A program made the position numbers and the translations under genes. A stretch of 39,214 nucleotides of DNA from a virus. Taxonomy: Duplodnaviria; Heunggongvirae; Uroviricota; Caudoviricetes. Each line of letters begins with the position of its first letter. Position 1 is the stretch's first letter. Below are positions 2,603 through 39,214 of the stretch, piece by piece. The DNA lies in IMG/VR virus record IMGVR_UViG_2541047122_000029; one strand, given 5' to 3'. The notes under the pieces are model-generated. The model saw only the letters and a program-made list of their open reading frames with translations, did not search any database and had not been told where the DNA came from.

Positions 2603-3535
2603 ATGACTGATATTAACGATGTAATCAAGACCATTGATGAACTTATTGATGGCGGCGTACTGACACAGTATGCCATCGCCAGAGAGGCGGGAATTTCCGA
2701 CGGCACATTATCGGCTTTCCGTAAGGGAAAATATAAAGGCGATAACGCTGCTGTGGCTGCTTCCCTGCGTTCCTGGTATGAGAACTGGAATAAACAAAGC
2801 GCACTGCCGGAACCGCCGCAGTTTGTGGAAACGCAGACAGTCCAGGAGCTGCGCACACTGTTTCAGGCGGTTCGTCTGATGGGCTGTATTAACGTTATTG
2901 TGGGCGTACCGGGTGTGGGTAAAACGGCCACTGCCCGTAATTACTGCCAGGAGCAACCAAACACCTGGATGATCACCCTGTCACCCGCGCACTCCAGCGT
3001 CACGGAGTGTCTGCTGGAGCTGGCCGATGCGCTGGGGATTGATTACACCCGCGCGAACAAAGGGGCATTATCCCGCGCCATCCGCCGTCGCCTGATGGGA
3101 ACGCGTGGACTGGTGATTGTGGATGAGGCGGATCATCTTGGTATTGACGGTCTGGAGCAACTCCGGGCAATTCAGGACGCCACGGGGATCGGGATGGTGC
3201 TTATTGGTAACCCGCGCGGATTGTTTAAAGGTGGACGCCGCGCCTTTGATGATTTATCGCGCCTGTTCAGCCGTCTTGCCCGTACAAAACAACTTCGCAA
3301 GGCCAAAAAGGCGGATGTGCTGGCCATTGCCAGGGCGTGGGGGATCAGTGGTGAGGCCGAGCTGGCCGTCATGCAGGCTATCGCTGAAAAGCCGGGAGCG
3401 TTACGCGTTCTGACACATACGCTTAACCAGGCGTGGCTCACCGCCAGCGGTGAAGGTGCGGCGCTGACAGAAAAACATATTAATGCGGCCTTTAAAGAGG
3501 TTTATACCAACCCTGAATTACTCTCACAGGTGTGA
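2603..3535 (+). CDS. B: Mu B-like transposition ATPase / target DNA activator
   Basis: 310 aa; N-terminal HTH, Walker A GVPGVGKT, IVDEADHL Walker B-like motif, conserved LPEPPQFVETQTV; matches Mu B organisation. Confidence 0.9.
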   Translation: MTDINDVIKTIDELIDGGVLTQYAIAREAGISDGTLSAFRKGKYKGDNAAVAASLRSWYENWNKQSALPEPPQFVETQTVQELRTLFQAVRLMGCINVIVGVPGVGKTATARNYCQEQPNTWMITLSPAHSSVTECLLELADALGIDYTRANKGALSRAIRRRLMGTRGLVIVDEADHLGIDGLEQLRAIQDATGIGMVLIGNPRGLFKGGRRAFDDLSRLFSRLARTKQLRKAKKADVLAIARAWGISGEAELAVMQAIAEKPGALRVLTHTLNQAWLTASGEGAALTEKHINAAFKEVYTNPELLSQV

Positions 3536-3537
3536 TT

Positions 3538-3759
3538 ATGGCGGTATTTTATATTCCTGATATTTACGGACGCTTTTACCTGGTTAATTTCGATAACGTG
3601 AAGGTGATTTCACTGGCCGAAAATAAAGAATGTGGCGATTTACTTTTTGAATTTAATGACCGCACACGAATGGTGATATCTGCCGGACTTGATCGCGAAG
3701 GTGCGACAGAAGTTTACAGCGGAATATGCCGTTCTGTTGGTGCGAAACAAGTCAGCTAA
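3538..3759 (+). CDS. Hypothetical early protein
   Basis: Track ORF 3532-3759 starts at GTG; first ATG is at 3538. Tightly packed after B. Confidence 0.5.
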   Translation: MAVFYIPDIYGRFYLVNFDNVKVISLAENKECGDLLFEFNDRTRMVISAGLDREGATEVYSGICRSVGAKQVS

Positions 3760-10163: not shown

Positions 10164-10167
10164 TATT

Positions 10168-10181
10168 CCGCAAAGCCTGCC
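10168..10181 (+). promoter_or_regulatory. Candidate activator-binding motif of the lysis/late promoter
   Basis: CCGCAAAGCCTGCC, 54 bp upstream of the endolysin ATG; near-identical motif at 18095-18108 upstream of gene I. Confidence 0.4.
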
Positions 10182-10234
10182 GCCTTTCCTTCACCGTTAC
10201 GCTGACTCAGAGAACATCATGAGACAGCGTAACA

Positions 10235-17960: not shown

Positions 17961-18094
17961 TTGTTTAAGGTATGCAAATGCATTACCTTACCCCCTTCAG
18001 GCGCGTGTCGTGATTTTCTAACCTGTATTTAACGGGCTTTAAAATCTGCGTGAAGCGCCTTTGTATTTTTCCCCTGGAAGCACTTCCTGAAATC

Positions 18095-18108
18095 CCGCAA
18101 AACCCGCC
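18095..18108 (+). promoter_or_regulatory. Candidate activator-binding motif of the head-gene late promoter
   Basis: CCGCAAAACCCGCC in the 176-bp gap upstream of gene I; shares CCGCAAARCCYGCC with 10168-10181. Confidence 0.4.
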
Positions 18109-18136
18109 CTGAAAATTCCCGGCTTATGCTGCCGGA

Positions 18137-30953: not shown

Positions 30954-31504
30954 CCCTGACCCCGCATCAGCGCGCCCTGTTGCAGTTGCTGCCTGACGGG
31001 CTGGCATGGGATAAGCGGCCGTCATCCGTTCTTGCAGCTTTGTGCCTGGGCCTCAGTCATTCCACGGAGCGTGTTTCCTGGACCGGTAACCAGATGCTGG
31101 CAGAACGTTTTCCTGATTCATCCCGTCTGCTGCTGGAAGACTGGGAGCGTTATCTGGGGTTACCGGAATGTGATATGACCGGCGCAACCATTCAGGAACG
31201 TCAGCGTTATGCAGGGAATAAATACCGGATGAAACCCTCTCTTAACCGTGAATTTTATATCCGGTTTGCGGCAGAGTTTGGTTATGAAATAGATATTCAG
31301 CCATCACCGGATTCACAGTGGGTCAGTATTGTCACGATAAACAGTGAAACCGGCTACCGGAATATGAATGTGCTGGATGATATTCTCACCCCGCTGCGTA
31401 TTTATGAGGGTGGTGCGCTGGAATGTATTCTGAACCGTTATAAGCCTGCATGGCAGACGTTTATTTACGTATATGCAAACAGTCACGAAGAGGAGACTAT
31501 TTAA
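30944..31504 (+). CDS. Tail protein (Mu gp48-like)
   Basis: 186-aa ORF preceding the tail-fibre gene. Confidence 0.7.
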   Translation: MAVTLTPHQRALLQLLPDGLAWDKRPSSVLAALCLGLSHSTERVSWTGNQMLAERFPDSSRLLLEDWERYLGLPECDMTGATIQERQRYAGNKYRMKPSLNREFYIRFAAEFGYEIDIQPSPDSQWVSIVTINSETGYRNMNVLDDILTPLRIYEGGALECILNRYKPAWQTFIYVYANSHEEETI

Positions 31505-32415
31505 TGTTCCATGTTGATAATAATTCCGGCGTGGCGAATATGCCTGAACTGGCTCCGGCGCAGAGTAATACCACCACCTGGTTTACCGAAGGTGACGGAC
31601 AAAAAGGTATCAGCTGGATTGGTCAGGACTGGCTGAATATTCTCCAGGCCGAACTGCTGAATATTCTGGCTGAAGCCAGTATTCAGCCGGATAAGGCGCA
31701 GTTAAACCAGCTTACGCTGTCCATTAAAGCCATTATCGCTGCGAATGCCTTTTCCCGGAAAAACAACCTGAAAGAAATTGCTGATGCCGGTGCGGAAGCC
31801 CAGCGTCTGGCCCGTGGTTATCTTGGTCTGGGGACGCTTGCCACAAAAAACAGTCTTGGTCCCGCTGACGTTAATGCCCTGGCGAAGGATCAGAACCTTG
31901 CCGACCTGGAGAATGCGGAAACCGCCCGTAATAATCTGGATGTTTACAGCAGGAGCGAAGGTGATAACCGTTACCTGCGCAGGGAGCAGAACGGCGCAGA
32001 CATTCCGGATAAAGGCGCTTTTATCGATAACGTCGGTTTACGGGAAACGGTAAATAAGGCTGCTGATGCCCTGCCATCGGGTGGAACCGCCGTGGCAGCA
32101 AACAGACTCGCCACCCCAAGAAATATTAATGGCGTTCCTTTTGACGGAACGCAGGATATCAACATCACGTCAGGAATGACGCAGTCAACCGCAGATGGCC
32201 GGTATGTACAGAATGTTCAGCTTGGAGCACAGAGCTATCATTCACCCGGAGGCAATGAAATATCATGGAATTACAGCGCACCTTCCGGTTGTATGCTTTC
32301 CGGTATTAACGTGCAGGAAACCGGCTCCCGGTCTGCGGACAATATCGGTGGGGTCTATTATCGCCCGGTTCAGATTTATATTAATAATGCCTGGAGAACG
32401 GTAAGTTCAGTGTAA
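31504..32415 (+). CDS. Tail fibre protein (Mu S-like); constant N-terminal part plus variable C-terminal part in the current orientation
   Basis: ATG 31504 inside track ORF 31450-32415 (TAATG overlap). The 3' part from about 32035 lies inside the invertible segment and is paralogous to the minus-strand segment 33093-33458. Confidence 0.8.
   Translation: MFHVDNNSGVANMPELAPAQSNTTTWFTEGDGQKGISWIGQDWLNILQAELLNILAEASIQPDKAQLNQLTLSIKAIIAANAFSRKNNLKEIADAGAEAQRLARGYLGLGTLATKNSLGPADVNALAKDQNLADLENAETARNNLDVYSRSEGDNRYLRREQNGADIPDKGAFIDNVGLRETVNKAADALPSGGTAVAANRLATPRNINGVPFDGTQDINITSGMTQSTADGRYVQNVQLGAQSYHSPGGNEISWNYSAPSGCMLSGINVQETGSRSADNIGGVYYRPVQIYINNAWRTVSSV
32021..32046. other. gix-like crossover site (left) of Gin-type invertible segment
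   Basis: TTATCGATAACG-TC-GGTTTACGGGAA, 12-bp half-sites around a 2-bp core at 32033-32034; resembles Mu gix / Salmonella hix half-sites as recalled; inside the tail-fibre gene where homology with the minus-strand segment begins. Confidence 0.65.
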
Positions 32416-32425
32416 ACCACAGAAA

Positions 32426-32444
32426 AGGGTGCTGAATGCACCCT
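32426..32444 (-). terminator. Hairpin between convergent fibre gene and assembly gene (likely terminator for the minus-strand unit)
   Basis: AGGGTGC (32426-32432) / GCACCCT (32438-32444), 5-nt loop; on the minus strand it is followed by TTTTCTGTGG. Confidence 0.5.
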
Positions 32445-32449
32445 CTGAA

Positions 32450-32971
32450 TTATTCCGGTTTTTCCGGCCAGGGAATCGCCTGGTAATGCCCCTCACTGGC
32501 AATATCATTAAAGTGCATTTCTTTAAGCTGTCGGATATACGCCATCCAGCGCGTCAGCTGTAATTTATTTTCATCGCTAATCATGTCCAGTTTTAATTCT
32601 GTTTTCCAGTCATCCACGGTTTCGTTGGCTTCCTGGAGCAGCGATGAGCGACGCTTTTCAGCAACCGTCTTCCAGTTTACCGGCACCTTTGATATCAGGC
32701 CATCAGAAAACTGCCAGTTACCGTCAATATTCACACCTTCCGGCAGTTCGTCCACTTCAACAACAGTAAAACCTGCCGGATATAAAGCAGAGACATCTTC
32801 AGCAACAGAGCAGATAATACCCGTTACAGGCGAAATACAGAGTTTGTATTTCTTTGTGAAAAGCGGGATAGATTCATAAAAATCCCTTCCGTCCTCACTC
32901 TGGAAATACTGAACATCCTCACCATAGGGTTTGTCTTTCGGGTAATATCGTTTGACATTAATCAGTTGCAT
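32450..32971 (-). CDS. Tail fibre assembly protein (Mu U/U'-like chaperone)
   Basis: Minus-strand ATG at 32971 (RBS GGTGA) inside track ORF 32450-33022; N-terminus MQLINVKRYYPKDKP... and C-terminus ...WPEKPE resemble Mu U as I recall it. Confidence 0.8.
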   Translation of the reverse strand: MQLINVKRYYPKDKPYGEDVQYFQSEDGRDFYESIPLFTKKYKLCISPVTGIICSVAEDVSALYPAGFTVVEVDELPEGVNIDGNWQFSDGLISKVPVNWKTVAEKRRSSLLQEANETVDDWKTELKLDMISDENKLQLTRWMAYIRQLKEMHFNDIASEGHYQAIPWPEKPE

Positions 32972-33092
32972 AAACATCACCATGTAAATCAATGATAAAA
33001 ACAGGAATAATACTATCGCCATATACAGGCAATGCTTGTCTGAAATAACGCATATTTCAGATGCTGGCTGCTGTGTGCTATGCCCCCGTTAA

Positions 33093-33458
33093 TTAAATAC
33101 TTGCAGCGGATACCCAATGCCCATTAATACAATATTGTATCTGTCTGTAATAAACACGGTCATCACCACCACGCATTTCCCAGTCTCCGTTAGTCTTAAA
33201 ACCGGTAATCACATTTCCTGATGACAGGGAGTAATTATATTCCAGTCCGCCGCTTAATGCCTGCGCTCCCAGTCTTACCCCTGTAACATAACGCTGATTG
33301 GCCGTTGATTCCGGCATTCCTGACGTAATGTTTATATCCTGCGTGCCGTCAAAGGCGACACCATTGATTCTGCGGGCATTTGCCAGCCTGCTTGCTGCAA
33401 CAGCCGTACCGTTTGATGGCAGGGCATTCGCGGCCCTGTTTACCGTATCCCGTAAACC
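33093..33458 (-). CDS. Alternative tail-fibre C-terminal segment (S'v-like; no own start, expressed only after inversion)
   Basis: Minus-strand frame open from the crossover site to the stop at 33093-33095; encodes RDTVNRAANALPSNGTAVAAS...GTQDINITSGM..., paralogous to fibre residues LRETVNKAADALPSGGTAVAAN...; a TGA lies in frame just upstream of the site. Confidence 0.7.
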   Translation of the reverse strand, partial: GLRDTVNRAANALPSNGTAVAASRLANARRINGVAFDGTQDINITSGMPESTANQRYVTGVRLGAQALSGGLEYNYSLSSGNVITGFKTNGDWEMRGGDDRVYYRQIQYCINGHWVSAASI

Positions 33459-33472
33459 GAGGTTTCAGGGAT
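33447..33472. other. gix-like crossover site (right) of Gin-type invertible segment
   Basis: ATCCCGTAAACC-GA-GGTTTCAGGGAT, near-perfect palindrome with 2-bp core at 33459-33460, inverted relative to the left site; about 55 bp upstream of the invertase start. Confidence 0.7.
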
Positions 33473-33526
33473 GCCGTATATCTGCTTTAAAAGGCCTTTC
33501 CACCTCTTTTTAAGGAAGGTAAATAC

Positions 33527-34087
33527 ATGCTGATTGGCTATATACGCGTATCAACAAATGACCAGAACACAGGTTTACAAAGAAATGCGCTGGAATGTGC
33601 AGGATGTGAGCAGATTTTTGAAGACAAAATGAGTGGTAAAACGACACAGCGGCCGGGACTGAAGCGGGCACTGAAGAAACTAAAACCCGGTGACACGCTG
33701 ATGGTCTGGAAACTGGACAGGCTGGGGCGCAGTATGCGCCACCTTGTTGCGCTGACAGATGAATTACAGCAACAGGGGATAAATTTTCGTAGTTTTACTG
33801 ACAACATTGATACGTCAACCCCCATGGGGCGCTTCTTTTTTCACATAATGGGTGCGCTGGCAGAAATGGAGCGTGAATTAATTGTCGAACGGACACGGGC
33901 TGGTCTTGCAGCTGCCCGTGAAAGGGGACGAACCGGCGGCAGACCCCGCCGTCTCACGCAGGAACAATACGAGCAGGTCGGGCGTTTACTGGCCGGGGGT
34001 GTCAGTCGAAGACAGGTGGCACTTATTTTTGATATCGGTCTTTCAACCCTTTATCGTTATTATCCTGCGAGCGTTTCGGAAAAATAA
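33527..34087 (+). CDS. gin: Gin/Hin/Cin-family serine DNA invertase
   Basis: 186 aa; resolvase-type catalytic N-terminus MLIGYIRVSTNDQNTGLQ (catalytic Ser), C-terminal HTH; RBS AAGGAAGG upstream. Confidence 0.9.
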   Translation: MLIGYIRVSTNDQNTGLQRNALECAGCEQIFEDKMSGKTTQRPGLKRALKKLKPGDTLMVWKLDRLGRSMRHLVALTDELQQQGINFRSFTDNIDTSTPMGRFFFHIMGALAEMERELIVERTRAGLAAARERGRTGGRPRRLTQEQYEQVGRLLAGGVSRRQVALIFDIGLSTLYRYYPASVSEK

Positions 34088-34186: not shown

Positions 34187-36226
34187 ATGACGTCCAAATG
34201 GGTTCAACTATCATCAATGCCCGGAAACTTTACTGTTAAAGTTTCCGGTGGTACAGCGGCATTTCTTGAGGCTCCCTTTCCTCCGGCCGAAACAAAAGGA
34301 GGAATGACATTTGCTGACTGTCTCATCAGTTTTAATACACGGGATTGCCTGTGGGTAAGGCCAGTATCCGGTGATCCGAGTGTGGAAATTACCGGAGCGG
34401 GTATTGGTGCGGTCATTCCGTTAAGTGCTGATGTTGCCGGTACTGCTGAACCGTCAGACTGGGATAATGCTGAAACACATACCCGTCCGTCAGGAAATGA
34501 AACTGCTTCCAGCTCCCCTTCCTGGTATTACGTGGTGGTTCTTGCTGGTCAGTCAAACGGTATGGCTTACGGTGAAGGTCTGCCACTGCCGGAGACATAT
34601 GACCGCCCCGAACCGCGTATTATGCAGTTAGCCCGTCGCAGTACAGTCACGCCGGGAGGTAAAGCCTGTCAGTATAACGACATCATTCTGGCCGACCACT
34701 GTCTGCATGATGTGCAGGATATGAGTGGAAAAAATCACCCGAAAGCGGATGTGGCTAAAGGGCAATATGGCACCGTGGGTCAGGGGCTTCACATTGCCAA
34801 AAAACTGCTGCCGTTTATTCCGGCAGATGCGGGGATTCTGCTGGTTCCCTGCTGCCGTGGTGGTTCTGCATTCACGGCGGGTGCTGACGGCACGTACAGT
34901 GACAGCACGGGTGCTTCAGAGGACTCAGCCCGCTGGGGTGTGGATAAGCCGCTGTATAAGGACTTAATCAGCCGGACAAAAGCGGCACTGGCGAAGAACC
35001 CGAAAAACCGCCTGCTTGCTGTGGTGTGGATGCAGGGCGAGTTTGATATTGATGCGAAGCCGACGGAGCATTCTGCGCTGTTTCTGGCGATGGTGGAAAA
35101 ATTCCGCGCAGACCTGGCTGAACAGGCGGAACAGTGTACCGGTGGCAGTGCTGCTGGCGTTCCGTGGATTTGTGGTGATACCACGTATTTCTGGAAACAG
35201 AAAAACGAACAGGCATACCAGGCAATCTATGACGGCTACAAAAATAAAACAGATAAAAACATTCATTTCGTCCCATTAATGACAGATGAAAATGGCGCGA
35301 ATGTACCCACCAACAATCCGGCAGAAGACCCGGATATTGAATCCATTGGTTATTACGGCTCAACGTGGCGTAACAGTGCCGCCACCTGGACATCTACGGA
35401 CCGGGCCAGCCATTTCAGTTCATGGGCACGTCGTGGGATTATTTCCGACCGTCTGGCCACGGCAGTTCTGACTCATGCGGGGCGAACCACAGTAAAAGCC
35501 GATGTTCCATCTTCTGAAACTGAAGCACCAGTGCCGTCACCTTCAGAAACTGAAGCAGTAACCACAACACTGCTGTCTTACCGTGTCAGTGAGTCAGAAG
35601 GAAATCTGAAAGCCCAGGGCTGGGAGCCGGCTGGCGGTAAAGCTGAAATTATCAGTGATGCAGGAGGCACAGGTGGTAAGGCAATGAAACTGACCAAGGA
35701 AACAGGTAAATCATCCTGGTATCTGGATCATGATGCCGGTACTGGTGCTGAACTGCTGAAAAATGGTGGTTTAATCAGTTGTCGTTTTAAAGTACCGGGC
35801 GACCTGGTGGCAAACCAGTATGTCATGGCGCTTTACTGGCCGGTTTCCTCTCTGCCGCAGGGTGTCACCCTGACAGGGGATGCAGGGAATAATCTGCTGG
35901 CATCGTTCTACATCCAGACAGACGCAAAAGACCTGAATGTGATGTACCACAATGCAAAAGTGGCAACAAATAACCAGAAACTGGGAACCTTTGGTGCATT
36001 TGATAATGAATGGCATACGCTGGCCTTCCGTTTTGCAGGAAATAACAGCCTTCAGGTTATTCCGGTTATTGATGGTCAGGATGGTGCCGCGTTTACCCTG
36101 ACGCAGTCACCAGTAGGAACTTTCCCGGTGGACAAACTCCGCGTAACGGATATCACAAAAAATGCAACTTACCCGGTGCTGATTGACAGCATTGTGGTGG
36201 AAGTGAAAAAAGCGGTAACAGAATAA
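34187..36226 (+). CDS. Multidomain SGNH/SASA-type carbohydrate esterase with Pro/Ser/Thr/Glu-rich linker and C-terminal lectin-like domain (cargo gene)
   Basis: 679 aa; AGQSNGMAYGEG (catalytic-Ser GQSN block), WMQGEFD and DRASHF motifs match sialate O-acetylesterase-type domains as recalled; linker PSSETEAPVPSPSETEA; no N-terminal signal peptide; sits between gin and com/mom, where Mu has no gene. Confidence 0.75.
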   Translation: MTSKWVQLSSMPGNFTVKVSGGTAAFLEAPFPPAETKGGMTFADCLISFNTRDCLWVRPVSGDPSVEITGAGIGAVIPLSADVAGTAEPSDWDNAETHTRPSGNETASSSPSWYYVVVLAGQSNGMAYGEGLPLPETYDRPEPRIMQLARRSTVTPGGKACQYNDIILADHCLHDVQDMSGKNHPKADVAKGQYGTVGQGLHIAKKLLPFIPADAGILLVPCCRGGSAFTAGADGTYSDSTGASEDSARWGVDKPLYKDLISRTKAALAKNPKNRLLAVVWMQGEFDIDAKPTEHSALFLAMVEKFRADLAEQAEQCTGGSAAGVPWICGDTTYFWKQKNEQAYQAIYDGYKNKTDKNIHFVPLMTDENGANVPTNNPAEDPDIESIGYYGSTWRNSAATWTSTDRASHFSSWARRGIISDRLATAVLTHAGRTTVKADVPSSETEAPVPSPSETEAVTTTLLSYRVSESEGNLKAQGWEPAGGKAEIISDAGGTGGKAMKLTKETGKSSWYLDHDAGTGAELLKNGGLISCRFKVPGDLVANQYVMALYWPVSSLPQGVTLTGDAGNNLLASFYIQTDAKDLNVMYHNAKVATNNQKLGTFGAFDNEWHTLAFRFAGNNSLQVIPVIDGQDGAAFTLTQSPVGTFPVDKLRVTDITKNATYPVLIDSIVVEVKKAVTE

Positions 36227-37139: not shown

Positions 37140-37410
37140 TTTGTTCCAGGTCCAGATAGCTGTAACTATCTGGACCTCCCTTTATGTAGTATCCTGTTGA
37201 TTTGAAACATACTACATATACGCGCGATCCTACCTTCACTGTATAAAAAGTCAATAAAATGATCATTTTATGATCGTTTTCACCACCTAAGTCTTCGTTT
37301 TCTTTAAGTAAATAATCACCGCCCTGAATCATTGTTGATGACTTTTCAATCTATTTGTTGTATCAATTAAACAAATCGAATCGATCGTTTTTGTCGATCG
37401 ATTGCATGAG
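37140..37410. promoter_or_regulatory. com/mom upstream control region (palindromes plus GATC cluster, likely Dam-methylation-sensitive promoter)
   Basis: AT-rich. 12-bp inverted repeat AGGTCCAGATAG (37148-37159) / CTATCTGGACCT (37166-37177); 9-bp inverted repeat ATGTAGTAT (37184-37192) / ATACTACAT (37209-37217); GATC at 37226, 37261, 37272, 37383, 37396. Confidence 0.6.
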
Positions 37411-37446
37411 AAAGGCATCAACAACAAAGCAGGAGGTTATGCGGCC

Positions 37447-37647
37447 ATGTATCGAAACATACGGTGCCGACACTGCAATAAGCTACTGGCACGGGCCAGT
37501 TTCAGTTATCTGGAAGTAAAATGTCCGCGCTGTAAAACCCTCAATCAAATCACATCTCCGAGCGCCACAGAGCACCCCACATACACAAGGAAATCCTGTC
37601 GTGGGGAACAGAAAGCAAGTCACATCCCGTATCATCAGCACGCCTGA
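37447..37647 (+). CDS. com: Com-like zinc-finger translational activator of mom
   Basis: ATG 37447 (RBS AGGAGG) inside track ORF 37402-37647; [13 protein letters not shown]...[12 protein letters not shown] matches Mu Com (IRCKNCNKLLFKA...IRCPRCKRH) as I recall it; overlaps the next gene. Confidence 0.75.
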
Positions 37648-38338
37648 ACTTATTCGCTATAACGACAATATCGTTGGTTATGGCTCCCGTGAGTTGCGGG
37701 TTGAGACAATAAGTTGCTGGCTGGCCAGACTGGTCATCGTCAATAAACATTACAGCCACCGTTTCGTAAATAACTCCTACCTTCATCTGGGCATATTTTC
37801 AGAACGGGAGCTGGTTGGCGTAATGCAATGGGGCTATGCCCTTAATCCAAACAGTGGTGCACGCGTCGTAACGGGCACGCGGAACCGTGAATATATGGAG
37901 CTTAACCGGTTATGGCTGCATGACTGTATGCCGAGAAACTCCGAATCAAGGGCAATCAGTTACGCGCTCAAGCTAATCAGGCAGCTTTATCCGCAGGTAC
38001 AGTGGGTTCAGTCGTTTGCAGATGAGCGTTGTGGCTGTCTTGGTGTCGTGTATCAGGCAAGCAATTTTGATTATGTAGGCAGCCACGAATCAACATTCTA
38101 TGAACTTGATGGCGAGTGGTATCACGAGATTTGCAGGAATGCCATTAAACGAGGCGGACAGCGAGGTGAACATCTGAGGGCTAATATCGACAGAGCCAGT
38201 GTTCATAAATTCCGTCAGTTTCGTTACATCCGGTTTCTGAACAAGAGGGCCAGAAAACGCCTCAACACAAAGCTATTCAAAGTCCAGCCTTACCCAAAAC
38301 CACAAACAGTTAAAACTGGTTTAAAAGAGAGTGAGTGA
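37601..38338 (+). CDS. mom: Mom-like DNA modification protein (anti-restriction)
   Basis: 245-aa ORF overlapping the end of com; ...[16 protein letters not shown]...[23 protein letters not shown] resembles Mu Mom as I recall it. Start uncertain (GTG 37601 in track). Confidence 0.75.
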
Positions 38339-38449: not shown

Positions 38450-38920
38450 AAAATCGCCGCGCTATAGGCTTTTGCTGAGTTACAAAGGCGAATTCTGGAT
38501 AATCAACAGACAGGGAGTGCGCAATCTGATGCAGCATTGCTCTGGAGTTTTTGGAACTCTTACTCTGCAGATGAACTGGTCGATGACTTAGTCATTCGCT
38601 GTGGTCTGGAAAGCGCCGTTGAAATCGTCCTTTTTGCCCTTCAACTCAAATATAAACCAGTAAAAGGCGCAGTAACCACCATCATTCCACCTAATCACGA
38701 AGCAGAATCGCTACCTAGTTAGCATCAACGTCTATGTCATCATCTTTCACTCGCTTCAGAAGATGAGTGGCAACGCTGTGTAGATAAAGTACTCACCGCC
38801 ATTCCGACGCTATCCCCCGCACGGCAACCTTTTGCGGCGTTACTGCTCCCTGAACGCCCGGATATCGCCCATGCTATAGATCTACGCTATGCAGACCAAA
38901 ACGTCCCGGCGATGACCTGG

Positions 38921-39214
38921 TGAACCGCCCCGGGTTTCCTGGAGAGTGTTTTATCTGTGAACTCAGGCTGCCAGATCATCGTTTCCGATGGAAGCATAAT
39001 AAGCTTTTTCTGCTTCTGCCGGAGGAGTATGGCCCAGCCTTCCCAGCAATCGTCGATTGTTATACCAGTCCACCCACGTTAGTGTGGCCAGTTCCACTTC
39101 TGCACGGTTTTTCCAGCTCTTACGGTGTATTACCTCCGCTTTGTAAAGACCATTGATGCTCTCAGCCATCGCGTTGTCATACGAGTCGCCTGTACTCCCT
39201 GTTGATGCCAGTAA
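38921..39214 (-). mobile_element. IS3-family insertion sequence, partial (continues past window end)
   Basis: Terminal sequence TGAACCGCCCCGGGTTTCCTGGAGAGTG from 38921; minus-strand transposase 3' end lies 42 bp inside it. Confidence 0.8.
38963..39214 (-). CDS. IS3-family transposase OrfB, C-terminal fragment (5' part outside window)
   Basis: Minus-strand frame open to the window edge: ...GDSYDNAMAESINGLYKAEVIHRKSW..., matching the DDE-integrase C-terminal block of IS3-family OrfB; stop at 38963-38965. Confidence 0.8.
   Translation of the reverse strand, partial: LLASTGSTGDSYDNAMAESINGLYKAEVIHRKSWKNRAEVELATLTWVDWYNNRRLLGRLGHTPPAEAEKAYYASIGNDDLAA

Follow-up and report, generated by a model that had tools for sequence, protein, structure and literature searches.

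The window, a 39,214-nt stretch of DNA held as IMG/VR virus record IMGVR_UViG_2541047122_000029, is by its sequence identity an Sp18-type Mu-like prophage of Escherichia coli O157 and other Shiga toxin-producing E. coli (STEC). Its tail-fibre locus is a Gin-type invertible segment that joins the constant part of the fibre protein S to one of two short tips, and that carries a single gene for a tail fibre assembly chaperone (tfa), on the strand opposite to the tip expressed in the window. The segment is inverted in nature. From its gene content and homologies we infer, with about an even chance of being right, that in this functional Gin switch one Tfa would be shared by both tips and that, when the opposite-strand tip is on, its synthesis would not depend on the late transcript of S.

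The 2.8-kb stretch tested around the segment matches E. coli O157:H7 Z1813 at 100% identity, as does the prophage's right end as far as ~38468, and the 95NR1 variant contains protein accessions of the Sakai era. An invertible host-range region has already been reported for Sp18, whose host-specificity function was scored as '(+), atypical' (Asadulghani et al. 2009). Thus, the switch itself is not new, and the locus is a modest variant, a known Mu-type switch in reduced one-chaperone form. No discussion of the one-chaperone asymmetry was found in the accessible literature.

Layout of the invertible segment

The locus comprises the following features, in window coordinates:

31504..32034, plus strand: constant N-terminal part of S (baseplate attachment), up to the crossover, with homology to Mu S and lying 3' of the Mu gp48 homologue (PF10076)
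32021..32046: gixL, 26-bp crossover site, central TC at 32033-32034
32035..32415, plus strand: Sv arm, the fibre tip expressed in the window orientation ('class A'), stop codon included, with S joined in frame
32424..32446: hairpin, rich in G+C, at the point where Sv and tfa converge, a candidate terminator whose T-run is clear on the tfa strand
32450..32971, minus strand: tfa, sole tail-fibre assembly chaperone gene, 173 aa (PF02413, Caudo_TAP, E=1.9e-18)
32972..33092, minus strand: non-coding spacer of 121 nt from the Sv' stop to the tfa start, with a Shine-Dalgarno-like GGTGA just 5' of the tfa ATG
33093..33458, minus strand: Sv' arm, the silent alternative tip ('class B', Mu S tip-like), stop codon included
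33447..33472: gixR, 26-bp crossover site, central GA at 33459-33460 on the plus strand
33527..34087, plus strand: gin, serine DNA invertase with Resolvase and HTH_7 domains, 186 aa, Ser9

The two gix sites are the outer ends of an imperfect inverted repeat (arms 32029-32207 and 33286-33464, 179 nt, 75% complementary), and they have the identical central dinucleotide TC in inverted orientation. gixL reads TTATCGATAACG-TC-GGTTTACGGGAA and is identical to Mu gix at 22/26 positions, and gixR, as its reverse complement, reads ATCCCTGAAACC-TC-GGTTTACGGGAT and is identical at 19/26. When the 39-kb window was scanned with a 17-nt core pattern, gixL and gixR were the only matches (chance expectation 0.15). 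The DNA between the cores, 32035-33458, is 1,424 bp long. The first-pass annotation of this DNA had described a Gin-type invertible tail-fibre switch, with 26-bp gix-like sites bounding a 1.4-kb segment and with homologous arms that are inverted and not direct, and in these respects it was right. Of the coordinates that it gave, 32021-33526, the start is correct, while 33526 is the base preceding gin and gixR ends at 33472.

Sv (126 aa) and Sv' (121 aa) both continue the reading frame of the constant part of S. They had been noticed as paralogous peptides on opposite strands over about 150 bp next to each site; the paralogy and the strands stand, but the similarity extends over the full length of both arms (54% identity, E=5e-40). 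Exactly one Caudo_TAP gene lies in the segment, in the same orientation as the silent Sv' (both on the minus strand), and a gap of 34 nt containing the hairpin separates the Sv stop from the tfa stop. Neither a second tfa (tblastn across the 39-kb window) nor a remnant of one was found, which agrees with the earlier observation of one chaperone gene, co-oriented with the silent arm, in place of Mu's U and U'.

Gin shares 75% identity with its Mu counterpart and has the PF00239 (E=5.8e-51) and PF02796 (HTH_7, E=1.7e-14) domains and the motif YIRVS(9)T with Ser9 kept. The DNA from gixR into the 5' end of gin can be aligned with the Mu gixR/gin sequence, with 83% mean column identity over the gixR-gin alignment and no gaps against Mu gin in the first ~190 nt of the gene. 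The Fis-dependent recombinational enhancer of Mu lies within this 5' part of gin; in the window, Fis sites are too degenerate to call.

Comparison with the Mu G segment

The window contains a Mu-like prophage with ner, transposase A and B, lysis, head and tail genes and the baseplate genes gp44-48, followed by S, the short invertible segment, gin, ~3.3 kb of extra genes, com and mom. The Sp18-type segment thus occupies the same position as in Mu (gp48, S, invertible segment, gin, then com/mom), and the constant part of S, the gix type, the crossover inside S and the Mu S-tip fold family of the C-termini are common to both elements. Residues 1-198 of S align with residues 1-191 of Mu S (PDB 5yvq_A, E=1.4e-48), and its C-terminal ~75 residues with the tip of Mu S, 434-503 (PDB 5yvq). 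S therefore corresponds to a shortened Mu S (303 aa vs 504 aa), with ~230 intervening Mu residues missing. Residues 3-147 of the tfa product align with Mu U (PDB 5yvq_B, 1e-15).

The Mu G segment is, however, 3.0 kb long with arms of ~320-335 aa, whereas the Sp18-type segment is 1.4 kb long with arms of 121-126 aa. Mu carries two chaperone genes (S-U / U'-S'), whereas Sp18-type segments have a single tfa instead of one for each arm. The gap before the chaperone gene is 2 nt in Mu and the 121-nt spacer in the window, and the ~3.3 kb between gin and com, which include a DUF6645/SASA gene, are lacking in Mu. Canonical segments with two tfa genes were seen in Mu, P88, Fels-2 and a Mu-type prophage of E. 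coli FDAARGOS_1059. The long-read-confirmed inversion in CP066032 (Milman et al.) was considered as a one-Tfa case and rejected, as it is a canonical two-Tfa Mu-type segment.

Gin recombines gixL with gixR and inverts the 1,424 bp, so that the constant 5' part of S is joined either to Sv (class A) or to Sv' (class B), giving two host-range variants. The segment is a minimal G segment, made of two short paralogous tips and one tfa. In the mechanism that we propose, a single promiscuous Tfa would serve both tips. With Sv on, tfa would most likely be transcribed from a promoter in the Sv' arm or the spacer, or by transcription entering from the gin side, and its transcript would end at the hairpin common to Sv and tfa.

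Both orientations occur in E. coli genomes

The flipped sequence was modelled by recombination at both TC cores, and the 2.8-kb query was compared with 5,426 complete E. coli genomes, with an orientation counted where at least 80% of the query was covered. The native layout is found in 183 complete genomes and the flipped layout in 26, four of which match at >=99% in a single ungapped piece. O157:H7 Z869 contains exact copies of the two 60-mers predicted for the flipped junctions and neither of the native junctions, with 22 scattered mismatches to the predicted flipped 2,801 nt. The S-Sv' fusion of this strain is a full-length 298-aa 'phage tail protein' in RefSeq, and the S-Sv fusion, too, is an annotated protein in RefSeq genomes. 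The OkiPb01696 genome has two related prophages in opposite orientations. That the Sp18-type segment is a functional switch of the Gin/Hin/Cin/Pin family, inverted in nature, is well supported, the evidence being at the level of the population and not within one culture. The first-pass annotation had proposed looking for both orientations. With native and flipped copies, joined exactly as predicted, in public genomes, the main test on which its proposal could have failed favours inversion.

The intact Gin and the inversion in nature would also be in keeping with a supply of Tfa in trans. In this scenario, some of the ~100 prophage copies would flip to the tfa-on state during replicative transposition, and Sv-on genomes would receive Tfa in small, catalytic amounts, perhaps with mixed fibres on the particles. 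Mu-type phages amplify their genome ahead of assembly, which would provide the copies. However, in classical work Mu lysates from infection were reportedly nearly all of one G orientation, implying slow flipping, and the 183:26 orientation bias likewise fits slow, clonally inherited flipping. The Tfa of Mu, moreover, remains bound to the fibre in the virion (PMC9608196), which argues for a stoichiometric and not a catalytic need. Supply in trans is considered improbable.

Conservation of the layout and exchange of the tips

Among the entries listed for the 209 related E. coli loci (183 + 26), each names a single 'tail fiber assembly protein'. The layout is kept in E. coli O91:H21 FWSEC0008, where the constant part of S is 70% and Tfa 64% identical to those of the window, and both tips are 96-98% identical. 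It is also found in a Sakai-type variant, in a variant with a 71%-identical Tfa that occurs in both orientations, and in IMG/VR contigs L031-L034. An independent case of a one-Tfa layout, with another type of Tfa, is a prophage of Citrobacter braakii ATCC 51113 (L007).

The tips fall into classes: A, that of Sv, with the motif ...PGGNEISW..SGCMLSGINVQETGSRSADNIGGVYYRPVQ...; B, that of Sv', which is Mu S-tip-like; D, the Sakai-type Sv'; and F, the expressed arm of L034. All five Sp18-type variants that were classified have a class A tip on the arm convergent with tfa, and a tip of class B, D or F on the co-directional arm. Sakai Sp18 belongs to the same element family as the window and differs by its class D Sv' and 79-nt spacer. 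The exchange in the Sakai-type variant affects Sv', the spacer and the initial ~15 codons of tfa, with Sv the same and Tfa 98% identical. Between Sv and its O91:H21 counterpart the ratio of non-synonymous to synonymous substitution rates (dN/dS) is 0.11-0.12 (dS 0.37), with 16 synonymous vs 8 non-synonymous changes in the last 80 codons. Judged by these substitutions, Sv is under purifying selection and functional.

In O91:H21 FWSEC0008 (L004) the two arms of the inverted repeat (2133-2290 and 3400-3556) are 94% identical over their first 150 nt, vs 75% in the window, and the tfa between them has 66% nucleotide identity. The L004 repeats have probably been homogenised by gene conversion.

The first-pass annotation had offered the loss of one chaperone gene as one explanation of the asymmetry. 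The locus would then be a decayed Mu-type G segment in which the chaperone of Sv is gone, so that Sv-on particles would be defective or fibre-less and this orientation effectively OFF. Such a history would fit the two tfa genes of its canonical relatives (Mu, P88, Fels-2, FDAARGOS_1059 and ~19-22 IMG/VR loci) as well as the 'atypical' score of Sp18 host specificity (Asadulghani et al.). It does not fit the absence of any tfa remnant from between Sv and tfa, where there is just the 34-nt hairpin gap, nor the purifying selection on Sv. Moreover, lineages in which S has diverged to ~70% and Tfa to 64% identity keep the layout, and it is seen again in C. braakii, where the Tfa is of an unrelated type. 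The arm lacking a co-directional tfa is the conserved one, and it is the other arm that is exchanged. Loss of a chaperone gene is thus unlikely as a recent event, and little probability is given to a decayed segment as a whole. Taken together, the conserved layout, the selection on Sv and the shuffling of tips argue against a decayed switch and favour a loosely specific chaperone that would serve whichever arm is expressed.

The pattern of exchange also suggests, more tentatively, that the segment may be a cassette acceptor, in which a conserved class A arm and one promiscuous Tfa, expressed in either orientation, would be retained, and the arm before tfa would be freely exchanged (B, D, F). 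We regard this as possible, though not probable. If true, one chaperone would fold at least four tips, and a new host range could be obtained by importing ~0.4 kb of tip DNA.

Tfa is related to the chaperones of class A tips

The N-terminal domain of Tfa proteins binds the fibre and is variable, and the C-terminal domain is conserved (PMC9608196, summarising North et al. 2019). In the window Tfa, PF02413 spans residues 64-173. The best phage matches to its N-domain are tail2 of Rac-SA53 (67%), the Tfa of phage 186 (50%) and the Tfas of CR3, CR8 and phiTE (~40%). Rac-SA53 tail2 is 51% identical to the window Tfa over the full length without gaps, and its gene lies directly 3' of a fibre gene with a tip 65% identical to Sv. 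In L026, a non-invertible Mu-like E. coli prophage, a 56%-identical Tfa (P0047) follows an S with a class A tip 64% identical to Sv.

Class A tips are also found in P2-like phages and in phAPEC8-like and CR3-like myoviruses, as well as in Rac-SA53 and L026. In all five of the class A loci opened (P22H4, phAPEC8, CR3, Rac-SA53 and L026), which are non-invertible, a co-directional tfa lies 0-14 nt downstream, and the class A arm of C. braakii has a co-directional tfa 69 nt downstream. In Rac-SA53 tail1/tail2, L026 and CR3 gp028/gp029, identity to the window proteins is 48-65% for the tip, compared with Sv, and 40-67% for the N-domain of Tfa. These pairs are co-directional, 2-14 nt apart and without an invertase, whereas the window pair is convergent around a hairpin. 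By homology, the single Tfa would therefore be the natural partner of the opposite-strand Sv arm, a relationship missed by the first-pass annotation.

These matches bear on the rival explanation that the Sv fibre has no need of its own Tfa, folding unaided, via host chaperones or via the Tfas of other STEC prophages, with the resident Tfa acting for Sv' only. Gene order is consistent with this, since tfa would be co-transcribed with Sv' only, and tfa has no clear promoter (see below). The fibre is short (303 aa vs 504 aa in Mu), Gin-linked segments without a detectable Tfa exist (four inverted repeat-bounded IMG/VR loci and mEpX1), and single-Tfa segments of the L046 type leave no room for a promoter. 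On the other hand, the class A tip genes examined elsewhere, seven in all, each have a co-directional tfa downstream, at 0-14 nt in six (E. coli, Cronobacter and P2-like elements) and at 69 nt in C. braakii, making an intrinsically chaperone-free class A tip unlikely, and it is to exactly these partner chaperones that the resident Tfa is homologous. Dependence on other prophages would break down once the phage entered a new host. We therefore disfavour the suggestion of the first-pass annotation that this variable region folds without a chaperone, and consider a Tfa-independent Sv in any form unlikely.

In the record of phage 186 (L017) a 'Mu-like inversion crossover site' is annotated at 1909-1934, inside the tail-fibre gene K, with no invertase there. 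Such gix relics may mark old points of cassette exchange.

Expression of tfa when Sv is on

A Tfa shared by both tips would have to be made in the orientation in which tfa is antisense to the fibre transcript. The spacer 5' of tfa is 121 nt in the window, 79 nt in the Sakai type and 69 nt in C. braakii, and Mu and the non-invertible phages have 0-14 nt at the corresponding position. The Sakai-type locus, too, has the hairpin where Sv and tfa converge. The C. braakii spacer contains two promoter-like sites, and at the position of the hairpin there is a perfect bidirectional terminator of 17 bp.

Several observations nevertheless weigh against a shared, independently expressed Tfa. Sigma-70 scans of the three spacer variants gave no significant promoter, the best hits lying in the top 4-10% of random windows, and the best sigma-70-like site 5' of the window tfa falls inside the Sv' coding sequence. 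The window-type and Sakai-type spacers share the ribosome-binding region only. The late-promoter motif TYCCGCAAARCCYGCC-N16-TAYGCT is absent from the segment and found only 5' of lys and I. As the one-Tfa segments L046 and L054 are without any spacer, with tfa abutting the arm, a spacer is not a general solution. Furthermore, the Tfa of phage 186, with its 50%-identical N-domain, pairs with a different tip class, so that membership of this Tfa family is no proof of class A specificity.

A search of the spacer for RNA structure gave no Rfam match and a fold z-score of -1.3, and its 8-bp hairpin shows no compensatory change in O91:H21. A Mu C-dependent late promoter in the spacer was also considered and rejected, as this phage makes no use of the Mu box CCATAACCCC. 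At 10166-10203 and 18093-18130 (plus strand), 5' of the lysis gene and of head gene I, the common element is TYCCGCAAARCCYGCC-N16-TAYGCT, and the Mu C box CCATAACCCC is absent; the late promoters of the window phage probably respond to an activator with a specificity other than that of Mu C.

Independent expression of tfa appears plausible, with weak promoter support. Of the options raised in the first-pass annotation, expression of the chaperone from its own promoter is still the most economical, although the promoter scans that would back it are not significant.

Distribution of one-Tfa segments

A survey covered 53 IMG/VR contigs, from the best 80 of 576 loci, in which a close homologue of Gin is preceded by 3 kb or more of sequence. 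Two convergent tfa genes are present in ~19-22 of the 53. Clear one-Tfa segments are of the Sp18 type (L031-L034) and of a P2-H-like type (L045, L046 and L054), several apparently single-Tfa contigs bear a small second chaperone-like open reading frame (ORF), and four segments bounded by inverted repeats have no detectable Tfa. As it is seen in Citrobacter and in several IMG/VR types, the one-Tfa asymmetry is recurrent in nature. A census of the constant part of S with one genome per species gave five loci: three non-invertible S-Tfa prophages, L008 (at a contig end) and C. braakii.

The segments of L007, L045, L046 and L054 resemble that of the window in being bounded by inverted repeats, lying by a Gin homologue, and having two or three arms and a single detectable tfa; their fibre and Tfa types differ from those of the window. 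In C. braakii it is the class A arm that is co-directional with tfa, opposite to the Sp18-type arrangement. L045 (IMG/VR 2585427732_000011) has, 2.0 kb 5' of the invertase, one expressed and two tandem silent arms, all ending in ...RPRNIAFNYIVRAA, and one tfa. This looks like a shufflon-like, three-arm form of the one-chaperone design.

At positions 9934-11486 of L007, 3' of gin, a collagen-repeat (G-x-y) fibre-like protein of 320 aa is encoded, followed by a 192-aa protein that resembles the DUF4376-like C-terminal part of the L007 Tfa. Together they would form another fibre/chaperone pair, located beyond the invertible DNA. A comparable second fibre with a DUF4376 protein is found in E. coli L026-L028.

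Tail-fibre chaperones are usually viewed as partners of one fibre, which limits host-range engineering. Here a single chaperone gene, antisense in one of the two states, goes with two or more tips, and this would, if the reading is true, be a natural test of chaperone promiscuity. If Tfa serves all arms, the segment would also show how little DNA gives a phage a second host range.

Annotation of the silent arm

The silent arm is unannotated in many RefSeq genomes, or is called 'hypothetical', 'partial' or a pseudogene, and this mislabelling in these prophages is corrected here. In the window, RefSeq has a 61-aa 'hypothetical protein' (WP_001497588.1) at 33328-33513 on the plus strand. This is almost certainly a spurious call, as it is antisense to the silent Sv' and runs across gixR.

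Genes between gin and the right end

The RefSeq genes 3' of gin are DUF6645/SASA, DUF1378, DUF826, a frameshifted ORF, com and mom. The first of these (34187-36226, plus strand) encodes a 679-aa protein with a SASA (sialate-O-acetylesterase-like) domain at residues 116-312 and a C-terminal DUF6645 (E=4e-70). Mu has nothing at this position between gin and com/mom, and the gene is kept in every Sp18-type locus opened. The protein could be a receptor-modifying or virion-associated esterase, or the product of a lysogenic-conversion gene.

A cluster of GATC sites (ATCGAATCGATCGTTTTTGTCGATCGATTG) lies at 37340-37400 (plus strand), just 5' of com (37402-37647) and mom (37601-38338), and recalls the Dam/OxyR-controlled mom regulatory region of Mu. 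Identity to Z1813 ends at ~38468, where Z1813 continues into puuB; the remainder of the window (38469-39214) has a fragment of an IS3-family transposase at its end (38963-39169, minus strand). As the sequence diverges from Z1813 after ~38468, the window copy lies at another insertion site or beside an insertion sequence.

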